From positions 21,524-85,523 of the forward strand of contig CANQRU010000004.1 of the NCBI GenBank assembly GCA_947626395.1: a stretch of 64,000 bases of DNA. The letters are read 5' to 3'. Made by a program: the position numbers and the translations under genes. The notes under the pieces were generated by a model that saw only the letters and a list, made by a program, of their open reading frames with translations, ran no database searches and had not been told where the DNA came from. This DNA is from an uncultured Lachnospiraceae bacterium (GTDB taxonomy: Bacteria; Bacillota; Clostridia; Lachnospirales; Lachnospiraceae). This document shows positions 25,885-38,039 of this stretch, in pieces. Positions within the stretch are counted from its first letter, which is position 1, and each line of letters begins with the position of its first letter.

Positions 25885-26565
25885 CTATTGCTCCGGGAGC
25901 GGATCGGAATCGATCACCAGCTCCTTTAACTCTGTATAATCTGACAGATGGCTTCGTACATATTCTCTTTTAAACGCCGCGAAAGGACTTGAGCGATCCA
26001 GCATTGCTTCAAGACTCCTCCGGTATCTTACCTGATCAGGGAAAGCTTTATATCGGTACAGCGTCCGATAAAATGTACCCATTGTTTTACTAAGCTGATC
26101 CACTCGGTACTGACATGCAACAACCCTTATTCCGGTATTTGTCAGCTCAAAACAATTCTGTATCAGCTCGGCAGTCAGCACCTCGCTCTCACATTTCGAT
26201 CTGCTGAGTATCTTCACATGACCATTTTCAAACGTATGCTCCAGTACCAATTCCGGATCTGTCAGGCAGCAGTCTATCACTTTATCATCATATTTCGGAT
26301 TCTTTTTTATACTGTTGCAGTGCCGGCAGGAATAAAACAGGTTATTCCAGTCAAACGCCAGCTCTTTCCGTTTTCGATTATAATGCGGTCTCAGATGCTC
26401 AACCTCAGGATCCGACAGATCTTTCAATTCGCACAGGTAACACTTGTCATGGAAATCCTGCCGCAGCTGCAGGACTACATCTTCTCCGGCATAATCTCCA
26501 TTCGCTTTCAGCGCTTCTGCGGCAAGCGACGCAGGCGGACCCGGGTTCTTTGTGATTTTCACCAT
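25885..26565 (-). CDS. ptuB: HNH endonuclease, Septu PtuB-like
   Basis: CYLCE, EVEHLRPH, FDWNNLFYSCRHCNSIK; 4 bp downstream of the ATPase stop. Confidence 0.8.
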   Translation of the reverse strand: MVKITKNPGPPASLAAEALKANGDYAGEDVVLQLRQDFHDKCYLCELKDLSDPEVEHLRPHYNRKRKELAFDWNNLFYSCRHCNSIKKNPKYDDKVIDCCLTDPELVLEHTFENGHVKILSRSKCESEVLTAELIQNCFELTNTGIRVVACQYRVDQLSKTMGTFYRTLYRYKAFPDQVRYRRSLEAMLDRSSPFAAFKREYVRSHLSDYTELKELVIDSDPLPEQ

Positions 26566-26569
26566 ATCC

Positions 26570-27808
26570 TTACCTCCGATTGGCCAGCTCCAGTTTCAGG
26601 CGGCTGTATTCCGAGGTAATCTCCGGAGCCAGATAATCGGGAATCTCATCCAGATAATATTCCAATTCATCTATTTCAGCATAATCGTCATCTGACAGCT
26701 CCCGTCGATTCACCAATTCCGCATATCTGTCGTACTTTTCTCTCAGTTCTTCCGACAAACGGTCGGCCCCGAAATATCCTTCAACAATTCCTTCATACGG
26801 TAAATTCTTCATGCCGTCCTGCACCAGAATATTCTTTTCCAGATCATAAATAACCGCATTTTCCAGAGAATTCAGCACAAACGGCGAGTGGGTAGAAACA
26901 ATAAACTGGATATTAGGAAACAGCCCGGTAAGAATAGGCAGTATCTTTTTCTGCAATTCCAAATGCAGATGCGCATCGACTTCATCGATCAAAACGATTC
27001 CTTCCATATCAAAGCTTGTGCGAACCTGGCTTTGCGCCTCCATGCGCATGATTAGATCTGAAACGATCTCCAGGATAGCTGAATATCCGCTGGAAAGGGT
27101 ATCAAATCCAAAGGGATCATGCCCGGTTTGCCGGATCGTAAACTGAAATGAATTGATATTAAAATCCAGCGTCAGATCCGGATCCTCAAAAATATCTCTG
27201 AGGATATTCGTAAAGCGCGCAAACCACTCTTCGATCTTCTTCCCCGTATCAGAACCGTCTTTATTTGCGCCGGAAAATGCCTGAACCGCTTTCAGATTGA
27301 CCAGATATTTCCCCAGCTTTGTTCCCGGATTATCCTCCGAGCCATAAAATGGCTGAAATTCCATCTTTTCAATATTTTTATATGGTTCAGGCTGAGACCG
27401 GCGTTCGTCGCCGTAATATGCAAAAATAAATTCTCCTGCCTCATATTTATTCAGCATATCCTGTAAAGAGAAAAACGTCTCTATGGGATATGCTTTAGCC
27501 AGCCTCGCATAGGCCATAAGTCTGTTTCTCTGAGACTTGCGGAGGAACTTACTGTTCATCACTTCAATATGAATTCCATCGCCCACCAAGTCTGCAGAAT
27601 CCGGGGTTATCGCCTTCGTTCCCGCCTTGGCATCACGCAGCAGATATTCCAGATGATACCTCAACGCCTGTAAAACGCTGGTCTTCCCGCTTCCGTTCCG
27701 GCCCGTCAGGATCAGGTTCCTGCTTTCTTTATCAGAGATAGGAATCGATATATTATGCAGATGACGAACGGATATAATATCCAGCTTTGTCAAAAAAGTT
27801 CTTTTCAT
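26570..27808 (-). CDS. ptuA: ABC-type AAA ATPase, Septu PtuA-like
   Basis: TGRNGSGKTS, LSSGY, VLIDEVDAHLH, FIVSTHSPF; visibly lower GC than flanks. Confidence 0.8.
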   Translation of the reverse strand: MKRTFLTKLDIISVRHLHNISIPISDKESRNLILTGRNGSGKTSVLQALRYHLEYLLRDAKAGTKAITPDSADLVGDGIHIEVMNSKFLRKSQRNRLMAYARLAKAYPIETFFSLQDMLNKYEAGEFIFAYYGDERRSQPEPYKNIEKMEFQPFYGSEDNPGTKLGKYLVNLKAVQAFSGANKDGSDTGKKIEEWFARFTNILRDIFEDPDLTLDFNINSFQFTIRQTGHDPFGFDTLSSGYSAILEIVSDLIMRMEAQSQVRTSFDMEGIVLIDEVDAHLHLELQKKILPILTGLFPNIQFIVSTHSPFVLNSLENAVIYDLEKNILVQDGMKNLPYEGIVEGYFGADRLSEELREKYDRYAELVNRRELSDDDYAEIDELEYYLDEIPDYLAPEITSEYSRLKLELANRR

Positions 27809-27876
27809 GCCCGACCTTCCTTTACAATAAAGCATCTACCACATGATATTATCATAGCATATCCCAGCTCTTTTAT

Positions 27877-28712: not shown

Positions 28713-28741
28713 TCGAAAAAAGCGCCGGTATGTGATATAAT
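28713..28741 (+). promoter_or_regulatory. Sigma-A-type promoter of STAS-NRPS operon
   Basis: TCGAAA-17 bp-TATAAT with extended TG. Confidence 0.5.
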
Positions 28742-28825
28742 AAGCGAGTATTTTGATTTTAAAGCCTACCGCATTTTCTCACACGCGGGAGCCGCGTGAA
28801 TAAATCATTCCTGGAGGTAACCGTA

Positions 28826-29122
28826 ATGACCATCAACAAAACGCAGCAGGGAACCCGGCTCACGTTTGCGCTGACCGGACGTCTGGACACCAACACCGCG
28901 CCTCAGCTGGAGACGGAGCTTAAACGCAGCATCGACGGCGTCACCGATCTGACCTTTGACTTCGCGGGACTGGAATACATCTCTTCCGCGGGACTCCGCA
29001 TACTTCTCTCCGCGCAGAAGACGATGAATAAGCAGGGCAGCATGACCATCCGCAACGTCAACGAGACCGTCTCCGAAGTGTTCGATATTACGGGCTTTTC
29101 CGAGATCCTCACCATTGAATGA
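28826..29122 (+). CDS. STAS-domain anti-sigma-factor antagonist (RsbV/SpoIIAA-like)
   Basis: GRLDTNTAPQLE, LEYISSAGLR phospho-acceptor motif; 98 aa. Confidence 0.93.
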   Translation: MTINKTQQGTRLTFALTGRLDTNTAPQLETELKRSIDGVTDLTFDFAGLEYISSAGLRILLSAQKTMNKQGSMTIRNVNETVSEVFDITGFSEILTIE

Positions 29123-29125
29123 CCT

Positions 29126-32100
29126 ATGAATATGAACAGAATGAACAAAGAACATACATATGGGCTGACGGCCGCGCAGAGGGAGATCCTGCTCGGCGAA
29201 AGCATTTCCCAGGAGGCCGCTTTCAGCGTCATCTCCGTGAAGCTGATGATCGGAGGACATGACGCCGCAGAAGTTAAGGCCGCCGCCGACCGGGTGATCT
29301 CCTCGGCGGATATTTTCCATGTATCCCTTCACGGCGACGGATTTGTGCAATGCGAATCACGCGATTCCGTCATACTGCCGCCAATGTCCCGCGGTGAAGC
29401 GGAAGCGTATACGGCCCGCCGCGATACCGAGCGGATGGATCCCTCCCGAATGATCTACGAAGCAGAGGTGATCCCCACGGACGGATACGTCCTGCTCTAC
29501 GTCCGCTTCCACCACATCATCATGGACGGCAGAGGGATGTGCCTCTTCGCCCAGCGTGTCCTGGACGCGCTGGAGGGGAAAGCGCTCAGCGATTCCCGCT
29601 TCTTCACGCCGGAGGAGGAGCCGGCGCAGGAGCAGGATGACTACTGGGCGCAGGTCTTTTCGGATTTTTCAGACGGTACCTCCGTCTTTTCCGGGGAACC
29701 GGCGGGCTTTGAGAAGCTGTCGCTCCCATTTCATCTCGGAGCGGTTGCGGACGGCGCGGCGCGCTTCGCGGATGAAATCGGCGTCCACGTGCCCTACGTC
29801 TATCTGGCGGCGCAGGCGCTTTATCTGGCACGGGCTACGGATTCCGACGAAGCAACTGTCCTGATGTCCCGCCTTAACCGAAACGCGGCGACAGCGGAAA
29901 CGCTGGGCTGCTACACCCTGGTCGTGCCCGTCCGTATCCGGCTTAAAGGATGCGAACATTTTTCCGATCTGTGCAGGCGGGCGCAGGAGACGGCGAAAGA
30001 AGCGTCCCTCCACAAGGGCGCGGGCTTTTCTTCCATCGCCCGCGCGTCGAACGTCAAGGGCGCGTTTTCCGAATACGGATTCAATTACTACGATTTCAAA
30101 CTGCGGACGGAGACGGACTGTACGCTTTCCCTCTCCGTCGCGGGCGCGCTTAAGAACCACCTCGTCTGGAACCTGTTCGCGGGCGGCGAATGTACGCTCG
30201 ACGGCCGCGCAGGGATTTACGATGAGGAATCCGCCCGCTTCTTCGCCGACGCCATGCGGCGTATCCTGGAAGACGGCGTGAAGGACATGCCGCTTGAGGA
30301 AATCCGCACGCTGGGCGCGGAGGAGCTTTCCCGTCTGGAACAGATACACGGAGAGGAAATGCCCTTCGGGCAGGACGAAACGATCCCCTCGCTGCTGCGA
30401 AGCACGGCGGCCGCATGTCCCGACGCTCCCGCCGTCTACGCGGGAGACAAAAAGCTCACCTTCAGGGAGCTTGACGAGCAGTCGGACAACATTGCCCGCG
30501 CGCTCATTGACCGGGGCGTAAAGCCCGGAGACCGGGTGGCCTTCATGCTTAAGAGAGACATCCGCCTCCTTCCCGCGCTGTTCGGGATCTCCAAGTCGGG
30601 CGCGGCGTTCATCCCCGTGGATCCCGCCTATCCCGAAGACAGGATCCGCTACATCCTGGAAAACAGCGAAGCAGCGCTCCTTGTCACATCGAAGGACACC
30701 GGCTCCGGCGCGGATATCGACGAACTCCTTATGGGCGGAGTTTCCCCGCTTCCTGACATTAAGCAGGACGCGCTGGCCTATCTCATCTATACGTCGGGCA
30801 CGACGGGCAGGCCCAAGGGAGTCATGCTCACGCACCGGGGCATCGCGAATATCGTAAAGCCGGAAAACAACCCATTTAACCGATATTTTACGAAGCACTG
30901 CAAGGGCCTGACGGCTATCGGCTCGGTATGCTTCGATATTTCGCTGTTCGAGTTTTTTACCGCCCTCTTCAACGGGAAATTCGTGGAACTGGCGGACGAG
31001 GAGGGGATGTTAAACCCGGAACGGCTGGCATCGTGCATCCTCGCCCACAGGGCGGACGCGCTGCACTGTACGCCCTCGCGGCTGGCCAGCTATCTTAGGA
31101 ACCCGCAGTTTCTCAATGCGGCGGAGGGCGTGAAGGCTGTTCTCTCGGCGGGAGAAGTCCTTCCGCAGGCGCTTGTAATCTCTCTCAGTGAGCTTGGAAT
31201 TCATGTTTTCAACGGTTACGGCCCTACAGAGGTTACAATCGGGGCCACGATCACCGAGAGCGGCGATATCCTGTCCATCGGCAGGCCCATCGCCAATACC
31301 GGAATCCTCATCCTCGGCGAAAGCGGCCGCCTACTGCCCTACGGGGCGGCCGGCGAGATCTGCATCTACGGGGCAGGCCTCGGACGCGGCTATTTCAAGC
31401 GGCCGGAGGAGACGGAGAAACGCTTCACCGAGAGGCACGGGAAGAACGTGTACCGCACGGGAGATCTCGGCCGGCTCCTTCCCGACGGAAGACTCATCTA
31501 CATCGGCCGGAGCGACCGGCAGGTCAAGCTTCGGGGTCTTCGAATCGAGCTTCCCGAGATCGAGAACGCCATGCTTTCCTTCCCCGGCGTCACGCAGGCG
31601 GCGTGCCTCGTCAAGAAGAGCAAACACAGCGAACACCTTGCCGCGTTCTACACGGCGGACAGGGAACTTTCCGGCGAACTGAAAGAGCACATTTCCGGAA
31701 CGCTCACCGCCTATATGGTGCCCGATATCTTCAAGCGGCTGGACGCCATGCCGCAGACGGCGGGCGGGAAGACCGACTATAAGGCACTGGAAAAGGAAGA
31801 CGTAGACTTCCGCAAGGCATACCGCGCCCCCTCCGGCGCGCTGGAGACCCTGATCTGCAACGGAATGGCGGAAGTGCTCGGCATCGACCGCGTGGGCGTG
31901 GACGACGATTTCTTCGAGCTGGGCGGCGATTCGTTGGGCGCGATGGAGCTTATGCTCTCCATCGAACAGGGCAACGGCGGAAAAGCGCCGGAATACAACG
32001 ACATTTACCGCTATCCCACCCCCGCGATGCTGGCGGAGTACCTGGCGGGAGAGCAGACCCAGGAACTCTATCCGCTGACAAATCTTAACTACGAAGGGAT

Positions 32101-33223
32101 CGACCGCTTTCTTAAGGCGCGCCCCCGCACAGAGAAACCGGCCCGGCGCATTCTTCTGACCGGCGCGACGGGCTATCTGGGCAACCATATCCTGGCGGAA
32201 CTTCTGAAGCACCCGGAGGTGGAGCACGTCTACTGCCTCGCCCGCTCCAAGAGAAAGGTAACGGCCGAAAAGCGCATCCAGAGCACCCTCTTCTACTACG
32301 CCGAAGACGACTTTTCGGAGGGTGGCAAATGGTCGGCGGTGGAAGGGGATATCTCCGATCCCGCGCTCTTTTCGGAACCCTTCGACGAAAAGATCGATCT
32401 TATCATCAACTGCGCCGCGAATGTGGCCCACTTCGCCTACGGCGACGCGCTCTCCCGCGTCAACGAGACCGGAGTGAACAATCTCATCGCCTACGCCTTA
32501 AAGACCGACGCCCGGCTCGTACAGATATCGACGATAAGCGTAGGCGGCATGGCGGAAACGGCCCGCGCGAAGGATATGCTCTTCACCGAGAACGATTTCT
32601 ATGTGGGGCAGAAGATCTTCAACGAATACATTTACACCAAATTCAAGGCGGAATACGCGCTCCTGCGCGCCGCGGCGGATAAGGGGCTGCCCGTTCAGAT
32701 CATGCGGGTAGGCAACCTGCAGGGACGAATCTCCGACGGCGAGTTCCAGATGAACCTGCGCTCCAACGGATTCACCCGCCGTCTCTCCGCCTATATCGAT
32801 ATCGGGGCCGCGCCCCGGTCGCTCTATGATTCTACGGTGGAATTCTCCCCCGTGGACGAGGTGGCGGGGATGGTCCTCGCCCTGACGGAAAGCGCGGAGT
32901 GCGGCGCGTTCCATGTCTGTCCTCCGGCAGAGACGGCATTTTCCCGCATCTTCGATCTTCTACGGCAGCTTGGCAAGCCGGTGGAGATCATCTCCGACGA
33001 GGAGTTCGCCAGGCTGATACAGGACTTAAAGGCGTCCGGCGAAAAGAGCGGTTCAGTGGAAATGCTCTCCATCGAACGCGGGAACGACGCATACAGCGAT
33101 ATTCCTTTCTCCCGCGCGTACACCGTGGAGCGGCTGCACGCCCTCGGGCGGTCATGGAAGGAGATCACCGATGAATATCTTGAAAAATATCTGACGGCGT
33201 TAGCCGGTATGGATATGTTCTGA
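29126..33223 (+). CDS. Single-module NRPS, C-A-T-R (terminal thioester reductase)
   Basis: C: HHIIMDG; A: YTSGTTGRPKG, FDIS, NGYGPTE, YRTGD, GRSDRQVKLRGLRIE, GGK; T: LGGDSL; R: LTGATGYLG, YIYTK. Confidence 0.93.
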   Translation: MNMNRMNKEHTYGLTAAQREILLGESISQEAAFSVISVKLMIGGHDAAEVKAAADRVISSADIFHVSLHGDGFVQCESRDSVILPPMSRGEAEAYTARRDTERMDPSRMIYEAEVIPTDGYVLLYVRFHHIIMDGRGMCLFAQRVLDALEGKALSDSRFFTPEEEPAQEQDDYWAQVFSDFSDGTSVFSGEPAGFEKLSLPFHLGAVADGAARFADEIGVHVPYVYLAAQALYLARATDSDEATVLMSRLNRNAATAETLGCYTLVVPVRIRLKGCEHFSDLCRRAQETAKEASLHKGAGFSSIARASNVKGAFSEYGFNYYDFKLRTETDCTLSLSVAGALKNHLVWNLFAGGECTLDGRAGIYDEESARFFADAMRRILEDGVKDMPLEEIRTLGAEELSRLEQIHGEEMPFGQDETIPSLLRSTAAACPDAPAVYAGDKKLTFRELDEQSDNIARALIDRGVKPGDRVAFMLKRDIRLLPALFGISKSGAAFIPVDPAYPEDRIRYILENSEAALLVTSKDTGSGADIDELLMGGVSPLPDIKQDALAYLIYTSGTTGRPKGVMLTHRGIANIVKPENNPFNRYFTKHCKGLTAIGSVCFDISLFEFFTALFNGKFVELADEEGMLNPERLASCILAHRADALHCTPSRLASYLRNPQFLNAAEGVKAVLSAGEVLPQALVISLSELGIHVFNGYGPTEVTIGATITESGDILSIGRPIANTGILILGESGRLLPYGAAGEICIYGAGLGRGYFKRPEETEKRFTERHGKNVYRTGDLGRLLPDGRLIYIGRSDRQVKLRGLRIELPEIENAMLSFPGVTQAACLVKKSKHSEHLAAFYTADRELSGELKEHISGTLTAYMVPDIFKRLDAMPQTAGGKTDYKALEKEDVDFRKAYRAPSGALETLICNGMAEVLGIDRVGVDDDFFELGGDSLGAMELMLSIEQGNGGKAPEYNDIYRYPTPAMLAEYLAGEQTQELYPLTNLNYEGIDRFLKARPRTEKPARRILLTGATGYLGNHILAELLKHPEVEHVYCLARSKRKVTAEKRIQSTLFYYAEDDFSEGGKWSAVEGDISDPALFSEPFDEKIDLIINCAANVAHFAYGDALSRVNETGVNNLIAYALKTDARLVQISTISVGGMAETARAKDMLFTENDFYVGQKIFNEYIYTKFKAEYALLRAAADKGLPVQIMRVGNLQGRISDGEFQMNLRSNGFTRRLSAYIDIGAAPRSLYDSTVEFSPVDEVAGMVLALTESAECGAFHVCPPAETAFSRIFDLLRQLGKPVEIISDEEFARLIQDLKASGEKSGSVEMLSIERGNDAYSDIPFSRAYTVERLHALGRSWKEITDEYLEKYLTALAGMDMF

Positions 33224-33236
33224 GAAGGAGGTTATT

Positions 33237-34688
33237 ATGGATCTTAAAATCATTGCACTGTGGACGTTTGCGGTATTTCTCGCGTCGGTATTCAGCGCCG
33301 TTCTCACGGGCATCACGCTTACGCCCAGATACAAGGGACCGGTCCGCGCCGCGGTCTGGGCCGCGGGAGCCGTCGTCGGCTACGGACTTGCGTTCCTGTT
33401 CTACTGGCTGGACCTGACAAACGATATTTTCGGGATCCTGGGACTCTCCGCCATGGTATGCGCGATCGCCCAGTTCCTGTACCGCGACACCTGGTCTACC
33501 AAGCTCTCCGTCGCACTCATGGGATGCCTGGTGGGCAACGTCTCGACGTTCATGCTCTGCGGAACGACGGACTCCCTGCTGGCGCCCGTTCTGGGGCTGA
33601 TCCGGGAGAGCCCCTACGAGGTTCCCAACCTTCTGTTCTTCATCGGGATCAAGGTCGTCGTCTACGTGGTGATCGCCGTGCTGTACGCGCGTTTCCTGGA
33701 AAACCGCCTGCATGCGACCATTGAGACGGTGAGCGGCAAGATGGGGATTTTCGTGCCTCCGCTTTTGATCTCCGTGGTTGGCTTTTACGTGATCAACCTT
33801 ATATCCAACGCGGCCGGCATTTTCCCCAACCACCCGCTCTTCTTCCCGCTCTATCTGACGATGTGCATCATCTTCGTGGTCGAATTCTGGATGATCTTCT
33901 ATTCGGTCAACCAGAGCGCCAAGACGATGAAGACAGAGGCGGAGCTTTCCGTCGCAGCCAATATTCAGAAATCCATGCTGCCCTGCATCTTTCCGGCCTT
34001 CCCGGACCGGGAGGATTTCGACATCTACGCGACGATGGACCCCGCTAAGGAGGTCGGAGGCGATTTCTACGACTTCTTCATGATCGACGAGACCCATGTG
34101 GCGGTGGTCGTGGCGGACGTTTCAGGCAAGGGAGTGCCCGCGGCGCTTTTCATGGTCATCGGCAAGACGCTCATCAAGGACCACTCCATGACGGGCGACG
34201 ATCTGGGCGCGGTGTTTTCCGCGGTCAACGAGATCCTGTGCGAAAGCAACAGCGAGGGACTGTTTATCACGGCGTTCGAAGGCGTTTTAGACCTGGTGAC
34301 AGGCGAACTCCGCTATGTAAACGCGGGGCACGAGATGCCCTTCCTCTGCAGGCGCGGAGAAGGCTACAAGCCCTATAAGATCAAGCCGGGCTTCGTACTC
34401 GCGGGAATGGAGGGGATCCCGTACCACGCCGGCTCGCTGACCATGGAAGTGGGCGACAAACTCTTTGAATACACCGACGGCGTCACAGAGGCGACCGACG
34501 CGAACAACCAGCTCTACGGCATGGAGCGGCTTGAGAAGATCCTCAGCGACAATAAAGACCTGGCGCCCGCGGCCCTGCTGCCCGCAGTCAAAGCCGACAT
34601 CGACGCATTCGTGGGAAGCGCGCCGCAGTTCGACGACATTACGATGCTGTGTCTCGAATATAAGGCGAAACCGGAGGTGCGGCCATGA
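33237..34688 (+). CDS. Membrane-bound PP2C/SpoIIE-family Ser/Thr phosphatase with ~7-TM N-terminus
   Basis: EVGGDFYD, ADVSGKGVPAAL, YTDGVTEA, FDDITML; seven hydrophobic segments in first ~225 aa. Confidence 0.92.
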   Translation: MDLKIIALWTFAVFLASVFSAVLTGITLTPRYKGPVRAAVWAAGAVVGYGLAFLFYWLDLTNDIFGILGLSAMVCAIAQFLYRDTWSTKLSVALMGCLVGNVSTFMLCGTTDSLLAPVLGLIRESPYEVPNLLFFIGIKVVVYVVIAVLYARFLENRLHATIETVSGKMGIFVPPLLISVVGFYVINLISNAAGIFPNHPLFFPLYLTMCIIFVVEFWMIFYSVNQSAKTMKTEAELSVAANIQKSMLPCIFPAFPDREDFDIYATMDPAKEVGGDFYDFFMIDETHVAVVVADVSGKGVPAALFMVIGKTLIKDHSMTGDDLGAVFSAVNEILCESNSEGLFITAFEGVLDLVTGELRYVNAGHEMPFLCRRGEGYKPYKIKPGFVLAGMEGIPYHAGSLTMEVGDKLFEYTDGVTEATDANNQLYGMERLEKILSDNKDLAPAALLPAVKADIDAFVGSAPQFDDITMLCLEYKAKPEVRP

Positions 34689-35092
34689 AGGAACTCACGA
34701 TCGACGCATCGGTCGAGAACACGCCTGTGGTCATCGACTTTGTGAACGAACTGCTGGAGGAATCCGGCTGTTCCATGAAGATCGAAGCCCAGATCGACGT
34801 TGCCGTTGACGAACTTTTCAGCAATATCGCCCTCTACGCGTATGCTCCTTCATCCGGAGCGGCCACTGTGCGGGTAGAATTCCGCGGGGAACCGCCGGCG
34901 GCGGTGATCACCTTCATCGACCGGGGCGTTCCTTTCGACCCGCTTAAGAAGACGGATCCGGACGTCACCCTTTCCGCCGAGGAGCGTAAGATCGGCGGAC
35001 TGGGCATCTATATCGTTAAAAAGAGTATGGACAATATGGAATATGAATACAGGGACGGGCAGAACATTTTAAAGATCACTAAGAATTTCTGA
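34685..35092 (+). CDS. RsbW-like anti-sigma factor / Ser-Thr kinase (HATPase_c)
   Basis: AVDELFSNIA N-box, DRGVPFDP, GGLGIYIV G-box; start overlaps PP2C stop. Confidence 0.92.
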   Translation: MKELTIDASVENTPVVIDFVNELLEESGCSMKIEAQIDVAVDELFSNIALYAYAPSSGAATVRVEFRGEPPAAVITFIDRGVPFDPLKKTDPDVTLSAEERKIGGLGIYIVKKSMDNMEYEYRDGQNILKITKNF

Positions 35093-35107
35093 GACCGGCG
35101 TGGCGGA

Positions 35108-35196
35108 ACGCTGGACGATTAGGAGTTCATGAACATTTTCATCGACGGGGCACGCGAATTCAGCAGGTGCCCCGTCGATGTTTATGCTGAGAAAAT
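35108..35196 (+). pseudogene. Degenerate 89-bp fragment of the downstream ABC permease gene
   Basis: 76/89 identical to 37767-37855; in-frame TAG. Confidence 0.8.
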
Positions 35197-35491
35197 CTTC
35201 GGAATGAACTTCGTCGGAAAAAGCTTGCACTTTTCGCCCATCCGTGATATGCTTAAAGTCCTTTCGCCTATCGCTGGAGACGCGCTGTCAACACGCTTTC
35301 CTGCATACAGGCGCAGTACAGAATGTATGCCGCTGGCACACGTTCTGTCTGGAAATATAATAATCTGGTTCGCTCCTTGCGGAGCGCGCCGGACCGACTT
35401 GGCAAGATATAACATTCAAGCGGCCTCAGACGGCTGTCTTCTTGCGCGGCCTTTGGCCGCACAAGAAGCATCGGATGTCCATCCGATGTGA

Positions 35492-35548
35492 AAAGAGGTA
35501 TAAGAGCATGCTTATAAGCAAGCTTAACGCATGCTCTTATATCTCTTT
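35492..35548. promoter_or_regulatory. Long inverted repeat in leader of ABC exporter
   Basis: 20-bp arms AAAGAG(G/A)TATAAGAGCATGC, 1 mismatch, 17-bp loop. Confidence 0.5.
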
Positions 35549-35599
35549 CCCCGCCGTCTGAACTGTAACGTTCTATAACTACCAGGAGGAAGCAAAACG

Positions 35600-36394
35600 A
35601 TGATTACGATGGAACATGTGTGCAAATCGTACCGGATTGCAAAAAGAAACGCAGGCTTTCGCGAAGCCTGCAGATCCCTCTTCCACCGCGAAACGGAAGA
35701 GATCCAGGCGCTTAAGGACGTAAGCTTCACGATCCGCGACGGCGAGATGGTGGGCTATATCGGCCCCAACGGCGCCGGTAAGAGCTCTACGATCAAGATC
35801 TTAAGCGGTATCCTGACCCCCGACAGCGGGACGGTCCTGGTGGATGGCCGGGTACCGCACCGCGACCGGATCGCTCATGTGAAGGAGATCGGCGTCGTCT
35901 TCGGACAGCGCTCCCAGCTGTGGTGGGACGTGCCCGTCATCGACTCCTTCGAACTTCTGAAGGACATCTATACGATTCCCGACAACATTTATAAGAAGAA
36001 TCTGGAAGAACTGACCGAACTGCTGAACCTGGGGGAACTTCTGCGCTCACCGACGCGGCAGCTGTCCCTGGGCCAGCGGATGCGCTGCGAGATCGCCGCG
36101 TCCCTGCTGCACAGTCCCCGGATCCTGTTCCTGGACGAGCCGACCATCGGGCTGGACGCCGTGTCGAAGCTGGCGGTTCGGGAATTTATCCGGCGGCAGA
36201 ACCAGCTGCACAAAACCACCGTGATCCTGACCACCCACGATATGCAGGACATCGAGGCCCTGGCCAGCCGCATCATTCTGATCGGCAAAGGACATATCCT
36301 GATGGATGGGACCCTGGAAGATATCCGGCGCGGCGGGGAAAATATCGACGAGACGGTAGCGGAACTGTACAGAAGCTACGACATCGCGAACTGA
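35600..36394 (+). CDS. ABC-2 exporter ATP-binding subunit
   Basis: GPNGAGKS, LSLGQ, LFLDEPT, TTH. Confidence 0.95.
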   Translation: MITMEHVCKSYRIAKRNAGFREACRSLFHRETEEIQALKDVSFTIRDGEMVGYIGPNGAGKSSTIKILSGILTPDSGTVLVDGRVPHRDRIAHVKEIGVVFGQRSQLWWDVPVIDSFELLKDIYTIPDNIYKKNLEELTELLNLGELLRSPTRQLSLGQRMRCEIAASLLHSPRILFLDEPTIGLDAVSKLAVREFIRRQNQLHKTTVILTTHDMQDIEALASRIILIGKGHILMDGTLEDIRRGGENIDETVAELYRSYDIAN

Positions 36395-36410
36395 AAGGAG
36401 ATTCCGCCAA

Positions 36411-37214
36411 ATGAAAAAATACCTCTCCTTCTTCCGCCTGCGCTTCGTCCTCGGCCTGCAGTACCGCGTCGCGGCCCTGGCCGGGATCGCCACCCAGTTC
36501 GCGTGGGGTTTCATGGAGATCATGATCTTCACCGCGTTTTACCGGGCGGACGCGGACGCATTTCCAATGAGCCTTTCGGCCACCTCGTCCTACATCTGGC
36601 TGCAGCAGGCGTTTCTGGCGCTCTTTGCCGCATGGATGATGGACAATGAGATCTTCGATTCCATCATAAATGGCGGCATCGCCTATGAACTGTGCCGCCC
36701 CATCGATATCTACAATATGTGGTTCTGCCGGAACGCGGCCAACCGTCTGGCACGGGCCGTACTGCGGTGCATGCCGATCCTTCTGGTCGCGGCCTTTCTG
36801 CCGGAACCTTACGGGCTTGCGGCTCCGGCCAGTGCGGGACATTTCCTGCTGTTTCTGGTCACACTGGTTCTGGGCTTTGCGATGACCGTGTCCTTCTGCA
36901 TGCTGATCTACGTAATGACCTTCTTCACCATATCGCCCCAGGGGCTGCGGATCCTGTTCACCTCGGCGCTGGAATTCCTCACAGGAGGCGTGATCCCGCT
37001 GCCCTTCTTCCCGGACAATGTCCGGCAAGTCATGGAGCTTCTGCCCTTCGCAGCCATGCAGAACGTGGCCCTGCGGATCTACAGCGGAAGTATGAGCGGT
37101 TCGGAAATGCTTAAGGCCGTAACGCTGCAGCTGTTCTGGCTCACCGCCGTCACGGCGGCCGGGAAAATGCTCTGCCGGATGGCCGTCAGGCGCGTAGTCG
37201 TGCAGGGCGGCTAA
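36411..37214 (+). CDS. ABC-2 family permease (DUF990 type)
   Basis: 6 TM, GGIAYELCRP. Confidence 0.88.
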   Translation: MKKYLSFFRLRFVLGLQYRVAALAGIATQFAWGFMEIMIFTAFYRADADAFPMSLSATSSYIWLQQAFLALFAAWMMDNEIFDSIINGGIAYELCRPIDIYNMWFCRNAANRLARAVLRCMPILLVAAFLPEPYGLAAPASAGHFLLFLVTLVLGFAMTVSFCMLIYVMTFFTISPQGLRILFTSALEFLTGGVIPLPFFPDNVRQVMELLPFAAMQNVALRIYSGSMSGSEMLKAVTLQLFWLTAVTAAGKMLCRMAVRRVVVQGG

Positions 37215-37241
37215 GTAACCATTAGAAAGGAATATAACCTC

Positions 37242-38039
37242 ATGCGTAACCTTTCAAGTGCAATCAAACTCTACAGACACTATATCTCCATCAACATCCG
37301 CTCCATGATGCAGTACAAGACGTCGTTCTTCCTCACCGCCATGGGGCAGTTCCTGGTGTCCTTCAATGTATTTCTGGGCATCTTCTTTATGTTTAAGCGC
37401 TTCTCCGCGGTGGACGGTTTCTTCTACAGCGAGGTTCTCCTCTGCTACTCCATCGTCCTGCTGGAATTCTCCCTGGCCGAGATGTTCGTCCGCGGCTTCG
37501 ATACCTTTTCCGGCATGGTACGCACCGGCGAGTTCGACCGCGTGCTGGTCCGCCCCCGCAATGAGATCCTGCAGGTTCTCGGCAGCAAATTCGAGCTGAC
37601 CCGCATCGGCCGCATGCTTCAGGCTGTCGTCATGTTCATCTACGGCATTACCAGAAGCGGCGTCGCCTGGACATTTCCGAAGATTCTGACCGTGGTCTTC
37701 ATGCTGGCCGGCGGCACCGCCGTCTTCTCCGGCCTGTTCATCATCTACGCCGCCCTCTGCTTCTTCACGCTGGATGGTCTGGAGTTTATGAACATTTTCA
37801 CCGACGGGGCCCGCGAATTCGGCAAGTACCCCGTCGGTGTCTATGGTGAGAAAATGCTTCTGTTCGCGACATTTTTCGTACCCTACGCGCTGATCCAGTA
37901 TTATCCGCTGCTGTTCATTCTCGGGCGCCGCACGGCCCCGTTTTACATCCTGCTGCCGCTGGCCGCCTTCTGGTTCCTGATCCCGGCGCTGGCGCTGTGG
38001 AAATTCGGGGTGCGGCACTATACGTCCAGCGGGTCATGA
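37242..38039 (+). CDS. ABC-2 family permease (DUF990 type)
   Basis: 6 TM, GEFDRVLVRP, FGKYP, YTSSGS C-terminus. Confidence 0.88.
   Translation: MRNLSSAIKLYRHYISINIRSMMQYKTSFFLTAMGQFLVSFNVFLGIFFMFKRFSAVDGFFYSEVLLCYSIVLLEFSLAEMFVRGFDTFSGMVRTGEFDRVLVRPRNEILQVLGSKFELTRIGRMLQAVVMFIYGITRSGVAWTFPKILTVVFMLAGGTAVFSGLFIIYAALCFFTLDGLEFMNIFTDGAREFGKYPVGVYGEKMLLFATFFVPYALIQYYPLLFILGRRTAPFYILLPLAAFWFLIPALALWKFGVRHYTSSGS

Follow-up and report, generated by a model that had tools for sequence, protein, structure and literature searches.

The window analyzed here, 64,000 nucleotides (nt) of contig CANQRU010000004.1 (assembly GCA_947626395.1, positions 21,524 to 85,523 of the forward strand) from an uncultured Lachnospiraceae bacterium of rabbit-gut metagenomes, carries four adjacent genes that encode a STAS protein, a nonribosomal peptide synthetase (NRPS), a membrane PP2C phosphatase and an RsbW-like serine kinase. 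These genes constitute an accessory, horizontally spread cassette that is inherited together across gut and rumen Clostridia, and we consider it highly probable that the cassette is a functional unit. The system is real, conserved and uncharacterized, but the association between an NRPS and a partner switch was already noticed in 2010. The reading that we favor, with a probability of about 0.5, is a sigma-independent gate resembling SiaABCD, which would act at the protein level on the synthetase or its export and would be equipped with an intramembrane sensor.

All four genes lie on the same strand, with gaps of 3 nt and 13 nt followed by a 4-nt ATGA overlap; positions and spacing, as proposed in the first-pass annotation of the window, were all confirmed from the sequence and by Pfam. 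The genes and their domains are as follows (window coordinates; aa, amino acids).

28826–29122, + strand: STAS protein, 98 aa (Pfam, NCBIfam)
29126–33223, + strand: monomodular NRPS of condensation (C), adenylation (A), thiolation (T) and reductase (R) domains, C-A-T-R, 1365 aa (Pfam; full-length alignment of the NCBIfam MxcG model)
29150–30325, + strand: divergent N-terminal C domain of the NRPS
30398–31771, + strand: A domain of the NRPS
31853–32044, + strand: T domain of the NRPS
32150–33220, + strand: thioester reductase (R) domain of the NRPS
33237–34688, + strand: membrane PP2C (SpoIIE-family), 483 aa (Pfam SpoIIE at aa 285–475, its sole Pfam match)
33237–33977, + strand: seven-helix membrane domain of the phosphatase, aa 1–247 (AlphaFold2 model, alignments)
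34089–34661, + strand: PP2C catalytic domain (SpoIIE-family), aa 285–475 (Pfam SpoIIE, 8.4e-43, 147 bits)
34685–35092, + strand: RsbW-like serine kinase, HATPase_c_2, 135 aa (Pfam)

The open reading frame (ORF) of the STAS gene is open from 28796, and its real start is the ATG at 28826, which is preceded by GGAGGT.

Relatives of the NRPS were sought in one genome per species, yielding 19 loci at the first scan and 215 loci when an alignment of diverse homologues was used, while the protein database holds at least 120 clusters with the same C-A-T-R architecture (45–98% identity), some of them with hundreds of members. Gene order was tabulated by tblastn and ORF calling in 73 non-redundant loci with NRPS identities of 39–96%. 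A PP2C gene directly follows the NRPS gene in all 73; the kinase gene is free in 58 and fused to the PP2C gene in six more, and a STAS gene is found in 56, in 50 of them directly upstream of the NRPS gene. This last junction is a point of tight coupling, its gap measuring 2–7 nt in many lineages. The only locus with about 1 kb of downstream sequence and no PP2C gene is L036, in whose genome a STAS-PP2C-kinase-STAS group lies on another contig.

Synteny was also examined in the reverse direction. The PP2C catalytic domain by itself is generic (at least 598 matches, about 70% identical to PP2Cs with other N-termini), and an alignment of the full phosphatase drew generic PP2C motifs, so the search was repeated with the membrane domain alone. 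It found 110 relatives, and among the best 80 of these an NRPS gene lies directly upstream in 76, two are cut by a contig end and two are switches without an NRPS. The four-gene order noted by the first-pass annotation is therefore conserved elsewhere, whether one starts from the synthetase or from the phosphatase. The arrangement recurs independently in about 100 loci, much too often for chance. Furthermore, all four genes have low ratios of nonsynonymous to synonymous substitution rates (dN/dS) between the window and its relatives, 0.05–0.15 overall (NRPS 0.10–0.15, STAS 0.08–0.12, PP2C 0.05–0.10).

The cassette occurs in Clostridia of gut and rumen (Lachnospiraceae, Oscillospiraceae, Acutalibacteraceae) and in some Syntrophomonadaceae (L097, L098, L102); cultured carriers include Lachnospiraceae bacterium 10-1, Lachnospiraceae bacterium P6A3, Bacterium D16-51 and Bacterium D16-36. 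The distribution is patchy, covering four of the 301 genera of the window's own family and not extending to a genome of the same genus; the cassette is thus accessory and probably mobile. An empty-site comparison with the same-genus genome G168 was abandoned, as that genome shares only about 70% nt identity with the window's and lacks synteny with it.

Within the NRPS, Pfam delimits Condensation (aa 9–312), AMP-binding (425–757), AMP-binding_C (811–882), PP-binding (910–973) and NAD_binding_4 (1011–1248). The NCBIfam MxcG model aligns over the full length with 404 bits, below its cut-off; the adenylation model TIGR01733 scores 343 bits, over its cut-off, and the thioester reductase model TIGR01746 scores 153 bits, under its 213-bit cut-off, with the catalytic residues complete. 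The HHxxxDG motif at H129–G135 (H129, H130, D134, G135), the GGDS serine (S936), and TGxTGxLG (1012–1019) and Y1168/K1172 of the reductase are invariant in 73 NRPS homologues, which upholds the first-pass annotation's description of the HHxxxDG, GGDS and YxxxK motifs as intact. The core motifs of the A domain and Lys517 are present. Its ten-residue code, DI[F/Y]HLAGIGK (DIFHLAGIGK in the window), which we mapped by hand with the PheA numbering, is likewise invariant in the 73 homologues, and therefore every member should load the same amino acid. Such invariance is uncommon for a secondary-metabolite family so deep and speaks for a single conserved molecule whose role is physiological or one of signaling, not for a diversifying antibiotic. 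No substrate was assigned from the code, since the codes for hydroxyphenylglycine (Hpg), Ser and Glu resemble it only in part. A glycine-specific A domain, which a very high score against the LgrA structure in the PDB might have implied, was also discarded: that score is the sum of two A-domain matches (about 306 and about 314 bits) and therefore says nothing about specificity.

The C domain is very divergent, with 71 bits in Pfam and PDB matches of at most 33 bits (best about 32 bits), the best being the C domain of TomB. Other PDB matches are 7C1H (RzmA) and 4JN3 (CDA synthetase), which we take to be starter, or lipoinitiation, C domains, and a starter role in which the domain N-acylates its substrate is weakly suggested. 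An N-acylated amino aldehyde or alcohol would be a reasonable product class for a synthetase of this composition. No stand-alone A or T gene occurs in the window or in the minimal-type loci. The first-pass annotation had correctly seen no phosphopantetheinyl transferase (PPTase) gene in the window: the single PF01648 match in the whole genome (98.5% complete) is an AcpS-like ORF of 154 aa (C4:97451–97783), 12 kb past the window end. In related loci, an Sfp-type PPTase is encoded inside the cluster.

The STAS protein matches Pfam PF01740 (59 bits, 3.7e-16) and exceeds the cut-off of the NCBIfam anti-sigma factor antagonist superfamily (68.7 bits). Its motif Y-[LIV]-S-S-A-G-L-R (Y-I-S-S-A-G-L-R in the window), with the putative phosphoserine S53/S54, is invariant in 56 homologues, just as the N, G1 and G2 boxes of the kinase (Pfam HATPase_c_2, 80 bits, 1.9e-22) are in 58, so that these motifs, too, are as intact as had been annotated. 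The kinase is apparently an active enzyme of the RsbW type and the STAS protein apparently phosphorylatable. However, against the RsbW and SpoIIAB equivalog models the kinase scores only 24–30 bits, with cut-offs of 135–155 bits. In six loci (L016, L062, L064, L067, L079, L095) the PP2C continues at its C-terminus into the kinase, a fusion that tethers the kinase to the membrane, and in at least 12 related, larger loci a MatE exporter carries a diverged kinase-like domain as its tail. A division of the STAS proteins into an upstream and a downstream class was considered and rejected, as the tree mixes the two kinds of copy into one family. Elsewhere in the genome, two orphan STAS genes are found at C23:3498–3791 (− strand) and C5:43217–43537 (+ strand), with no adjoining kinase or phosphatase gene. 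The copy on C23 was tried as a second enzyme-linked STAS and dropped because it has its own promoter and sits behind the terminator of a pyruvate:ferredoxin oxidoreductase gene.

In the phosphatase, the metal-binding aspartates, intact as reported at first pass, are D276, D294, D414 and D466/D467 and are invariant in 65 sequences. Foldseek matches of the catalytic domain comprise the RssB C-terminal domain, the RsbU-RsbW protein Rv1364c, SiaA-PP2C, RsbX and SpoIIE. AlphaFold2 models built with 43–65 homologues gave a mean predicted local distance difference test (pLDDT) score of 85 for the whole phosphatase and, for the membrane domain alone, a pLDDT of 88.8 and a predicted template modeling (pTM) score of 0.84. 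The membrane domain is modeled as seven helices joined by very short loops, the last helix continuing into the PP2C domain. A Foldseek search with it against the PDB returned no match (best E 0.3, template modeling score ≤ 0.25), nor did a Pfam search. Conserved polar residues lie in the helices or at their ends: D63, K89, C108-G109-T-T-D112 (the FCGTTD motif), K139, N187, N191 and E216. Among the best 120 of 158 protein-database clusters, every occurrence of the domain is in a fusion with SpoIIE, at times joined by HATPase_c_2 as well, and no other partner appears. As it has no extracellular part, its cue must be sensed within the membrane. The model confidently presents a new fold with a conserved polar core, which makes the domain a candidate receptor for a lipid-like ligand; that this ligand is the product of the NRPS strikes us as doubtful.

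What the switch controls is the point on which the possible explanations differ. In classical partner switching, the kinase would hold an unlinked sigma factor (SigF, SigG or one of extracytoplasmic function), the NRPS product would be an autoinducer sensed by the membrane PP2C, and dephosphorylated STAS would free the sigma factor for transcription. The STAS protein, kinase and PP2C do belong to families that perform exactly this kind of switching, the genome contains 20 sigma-70-family matches, all on other contigs or outside the window, and the invariant A-domain code and invariant membrane pocket would fit a fixed signal-receptor pair, with the NRPS-free switch of locus L214 resembling a receptor-only genotype. 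Locus L061, moreover, encodes a sigma-70 protein with regions 2 and 4 (870–1487, 206 aa) directly upstream of the kinase gene. However, L061 is the sole such case in about 100 loci. When 162 fetched loci (2.6 Mb; about 100 distinct) were searched with our own hidden Markov model (HMM) of sigma region 2, a sigma gene was found near the cassette in only two distinct loci, and a sigma-70 search of the window ORFs was empty, as the first-pass annotation had stated. In the genome, the SigB/F/G class is represented by SigF and SigG only (SigE and SigK are also present); SigF adjoins its own SpoIIAA and SpoIIAB, and there is no spare SigB-like orphan. Some relatives have the kinase joined to the membrane PP2C or a kinase-like domain joined to MATE pumps, and the low scores of the kinase against RsbW and SpoIIAB also speak against this account. 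Archaea, as is well established, lack sigma factors. The association is nevertheless kept in a member of that group (PMC2812497). Synteny, the kinase fusions, the want of a spare SigB-type sigma factor and the archaeal occurrence favor an output other than a sigma factor, which we hold to be probable; control of an unlinked sigma factor we judge unlikely, and as a cognate sigma factor was looked for and not found, we have not filed the cassette as a SigB- or SigF-type module.

A switch that gates transport would have STAS dock on a kinase-like domain or on the ABC ATPase of a product exporter or substrate importer, the target in the window being the ABC-2 exporter encoded downstream. MatE-HATPase_c_2 fusions stand beside the partner genes in many related loci, amino-acid importers and exporters are the commonest accessory genes, and the MlaB-MlaF pair, in which a STAS protein regulates an ABC ATPase, offers a precedent, albeit one whose MlaB model matches the window weakly (24.5 bits). 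In the window, however, the kinase HMM matched the free kinase alone among all ORFs, so that no transporter with a kinase-like domain is present; the ABC-2 exporter is shared only with the closest relatives and apparently has its own promoter, and it is the NRPS-PP2C pair, not a transporter-PP2C pair, that is invariant. We rate this account as decidedly unlikely. It is still less probable, to the point of being hardly credible, that a common Clostridial trio and a small NRPS are mere neighbors carried by a single mobile island without any functional link. The patchy spread would suit hitch-hiking genes on such an island. Pairwise divergence is correlated for NRPS and PP2C (r = 0.87, a value reached in none of 500 permutations), NRPS and kinase (0.72) and NRPS and STAS (0.65), which fits inheritance as a unit, but plain vertical co-inheritance gives the same result, and correlated divergence alone does not prove interaction. 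Against mere co-travel stand the adjacency maintained down to 39% NRPS identity and in several families, gene-order shuffles that always keep NRPS and PP2C together, the near-absence of the membrane domain from other contexts, and the tight spacing (gaps of 2–13 nt and a 4-nt overlap).

Besides L061 and the ambiguity of correlated divergence, several observations weigh against a sigma-independent gate on the synthetase. Of the co-occurrence and fusion with the switch genes for which the first-pass annotation proposed to search, the co-occurrence holds, but among the 120 best NRPS homologues neither a STAS-NRPS nor a kinase-NRPS fusion is found. The position of the STAS gene is not fixed, since it follows the kinase gene in about eight loci. 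The genome contains two SpoIIE-family genes by Pfam search, and its two orphan STAS paralogues are 63% and 43% identical to the cassette STAS; the switch may therefore have other substrates or outputs. In locus L214 (1228–9339, genome G301), a STAS gene, a seven-helix PP2C gene, a kinase gene and a second STAS gene occur in a genome with no orthologue of the NRPS anywhere, which suits a pure sensor better than a gate on a synthetase. Finally, for the priming of the T domain the window's genome has no Sfp-type PPTase, only the AcpS-like gene.

Under the favored sigma-independent gate, the NRPS would load one fixed amino acid, the divergent C domain would acylate it with acyl-CoA or acyl carrier protein-bound acyl as the donor, and reductive release would yield an N-acyl amino aldehyde or alcohol. 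The membrane domain would sense a cue within the membrane, most likely the lipophilic product or its acyl precursor, and this cue would set the activity of the PP2C against that of the kinase and hence the phosphorylation state of STAS. Dephosphorylated STAS, or the kinase that it sequesters, would then bind a pathway protein and turn synthesis or release on or off. The NRPS is the only other universally conserved gene and by parsimony the best candidate target in the minimal form; with no exporter-kinase fusion in the window, the likeliest protein to be bound there would be the synthetase, although we propose the NRPS itself as the target only tentatively. In the larger variants, an exporter is an equally good candidate. 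Both circuits put forward at first pass, one that makes and senses the product and one in which the switch acts on the synthetase directly, thus stay at the level of proposals. The fullest version, in which the seven-helix domain is the receptor for the NRPS's own lipophilic product and the STAS output switches the assembly line on and off, seems to us rather improbable. Read-through from STAS to NRPS, conceivable because the STAS stop codon TGA is in frame with the NRPS start, was rejected because neither gap nor frame is constant from one lineage to another (gaps of 2, 3, 6, 7 nt and more).

The window holds the minimal form of the cassette, STAS-NRPS-PP2C-kinase followed by an exporter. Many Lachnospiraceae loci have a larger form, with an A-T-C-A-T-R NRPS, a MatE protein with a kinase-like tail, an Sfp-type PPTase, the kinase, a Cys-rich protein, a polar amino-acid ABC importer, the STAS-NRPS-PP2C genes, an SDF transporter and a cyclic nucleotide monophosphate (cNMP)-binding protein; in several related loci the A-T-C-A-T-R enzyme gene lies directly upstream of the cassette. 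The importers among the accessory genes (SBP_bac_3/permease with ATPase; SDF) suggest that the pathway obtains the amino acid to be loaded by uptake. In three loci the importer ATPase is about 120 aa longer than usual (L048:8461–9627, L201:1146–2312, L204:942–2078). The tails of these ATPases and the N-termini of SDF genes in L041, L049 and L099 give very weak matches to the kinase HMM (E 0.02–0.08) and could be degenerate docking domains, or noise.

The Cys-rich protein of the larger form (63–71 aa, CDNxRPCPCTYxCPRHGKCCACVAHHRDN...; L021:7406–7606, L023:4066–4269, L025:4455–4646 and many further related loci) is in most cases encoded after the kinase gene, and it retains 82–90% identity between loci whose NRPSs have diverged far more. 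It matches no Pfam family and is absent from the window's genome. In L214, two ORFs of 804 and 907 aa without Pfam matches lie directly upstream of the switch, and the locus could be a receptor-only genotype or have a different partner enzyme. In L225 (512–9394), the order is STAS-PP2C, an NRPS split into two ORFs, and PP2C-kinase-STAS, so that two membrane phosphatase copies flank a possibly broken NRPS.

The cassette is bordered by the following features.

28713–28741, + strand: promoter-like site (TCGAAA, 17 nt, TATAAT) with a TG extended −10 (TG-n-TATAAT), from a consensus scan
28782–28798, + strand: small 5' leader hairpin (CACGCGG-GAG-CCGCGTG), read off the sequence
35140–35180, + strand: terminator-like hairpin, 14-bp stem followed by TTTAT, read off the sequence
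35600–38039, + strand: ABC-2 type exporter, with the ATPase at 35600–36394 and permeases at 36411–37214 and 37242–38039 (Pfam ABC_tran, ABC2_membrane)

The sigma-A-type promoter named in the first-pass annotation stands insofar as a site with an extended −10 is present whose TGnTATAAT recurs in L027 and L002, the two closest relatives, but the scan taken as a whole scores no higher than shuffled sequences; remoter groups have a different upstream sequence that also bears TATAAT. The site is a plausible promoter of the four-gene operon. The leader hairpin, just 5' of the STAS ribosome-binding site, and the terminator-like hairpin are also conserved in L027 and L002, the latter likely marking the end of the operon. 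The ABC-2 exporter, probably under its own promoter, is likewise restricted to these two relatives, while other minimal-type loci have different ABC exporters downstream; it is possibly the exporter of the NRPS product and an optional part of the system.

The 507-nt spacer between the kinase and ABC ATPase genes (35093–35599) is 99.8% identical to that of L027 and 97.4% to that of L002, whereas the flanking genes are only 94–97.7% identical. Its 120-aa ORF is not coding, because a 1-nt insertion splits the same ORF in L002. A promoter-like site lies in the spacer along with several hairpins, in one of which G-C has become A-T by a compensatory change. The spacer may be a structured leader of the exporter; it has no Rfam match, and an Rfam search of the operon and its flanks gave nothing real. 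The first 94 nt of the spacer with the terminator-like hairpin (35108–35200) are an 85% copy of 37767–37860 in the second ABC-2 permease gene, a duplicate that may be the scar of a rearrangement joining the cassette to the transporter genes. On the other side of the cassette lies a divergent gene with an HD domain (Pfam). Just upstream of the cassette, too, two genes of low GC content (0.45) at 25885–27835 (− strand) encode an AAA_21/AAA_15 ATPase (421 aa) and an HNH endonuclease-like protein (226 aa), a pair that resembles a defence island.

To our knowledge, almost no post-translational control of NRPS assembly lines has been described, and a phospho-switch dedicated to an NRPS would add a new layer of control over natural-product synthesis, here in a cassette found in about 215 species genomes of gut and rumen Clostridia. 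If the proposal holds, this NRPS would be the first to be placed under phosphorylation-dependent partner switching, and its N-acyl amino aldehyde or alcohol, together with the receptor-phosphatase that reads it, would form a new kind of signal-receptor pair, with L214-like genomes as eavesdropping receivers that retain the receptor only. It would also account for the persistence of partner-switching genes beside NRPS genes in a methanogen. As cultured carriers exist, the hypothesis is directly testable.

The closest published description is that of Leahy et al. (2010) for the archaeon Methanobrevibacter ruminantium M1. There, genes for two serine phosphatases, an anti-sigma antagonist and a MatE pump surround an NRPS gene, while a companion cluster encodes a PPTase, another antagonist, another phosphatase and a kinase of the anti-sigma type (mru0066-mru0071 and mru0512-0516; also Swol_1094 of Syntrophomonas wolfei) (PMC2812497). 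In an annotation remark, a role in sensing and in regulating the NRPS was suggested, with no comparative analysis, mechanism or product (PMC2812497), and the products of these NRPSs were still unknown in 2021 (PMC8024701). We found no comparative or mechanistic study of the association in the literature. The first-pass annotation, which knew of no characterized system with this layout, was thus right as far as characterization goes; the layout itself had been described in 2010 for mru0066-mru0071 (PMC2812497). Compared by published description, the archaeal and window systems share a reductase-terminated NRPS with an N-terminal C domain and adjoining serine phosphatases and anti-sigma antagonist, but mru0068 has two modules and a MatE pump, whereas the window has a one-module enzyme and an ABC-2 exporter.

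Among synthetases, MxcG (myxochelin), TomB (tomaymycin) and NpsB (tilivalline) share the C-A-T-R order and reductive release. In these three cases an aryl donor is supplied to the enzyme by separate loading proteins (MxcE/F, TomA and NpsA/ThdA, respectively), whereas the window has no aryl-acid loading genes and its model scores are far under the cut-offs; we know of none of the three that is linked to a partner switch. The dipeptide-aldehyde and pyrazinone NRPSs of gut Clostridia, reportedly described by Guo et al. in 2017, and AusA are also terminated by an R domain, and the A-T-C-A-T-R architecture adjoins the cassette in related loci. The window synthetase differs from these gut Clostridia enzymes in having one module only, a divergent C domain at its N-terminus and a single specificity code that is invariant.

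The switch proteins share their three families and their catalytic and phospho-acceptor motifs with the RsbU/RsbV/RsbW-SigB and SpoIIE/SpoIIAA/SpoIIAB-SigF modules of Bacillus, but the cassette differs in having no cognate sigma gene, a kinase far under the cut-offs, an enzyme gene inside the operon and a seven-helix input domain of unmatched fold. In SypE/SypA (Vibrio), HsbA (Pseudomonas), the Anabaena HenR module and MlaB-MlaF, the phosphorylation state of a STAS protein affects an enzyme, a transporter or some other target that is not a sigma factor, and SypE and Rv1364c fuse kinase and PP2C, as six loci do here; none of the four former systems involves a natural-product assembly line. The HenR module provides partner-switch control of a glycosyltransferase (PMC13555669).

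The nearest functional parallel is SiaABCD of Pseudomonas aeruginosa, in which the switch protein binds a diguanylate cyclase directly and controls this enzyme (PMC8457831, PMC7647112). One operon, in which there is no sigma factor gene, comprises the membrane PP2C SiaA, the kinase SiaB, the switch protein SiaC and the enzyme SiaD. The cassette has the same gene content: a PP2C, a kinase, a small switch protein and a candidate target enzyme in one operon without a sigma gene. SiaA-PP2C, moreover, ranks with the best matches of the window phosphatase both by fold and by family. Nevertheless, SiaD is a diguanylate cyclase and not an NRPS, SiaA has another membrane input with a HAMP domain, and SiaC, whose phosphorylated residue is a threonine, is not known as a Pfam STAS protein. 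The NCBIfam SiaA model gives the window phosphatase 37.8 bits with a cut-off of 700, and the likeness is therefore one of working principle, not of family membership. Together, SiaABCD and the Anabaena module establish that such trios can act on enzymes.

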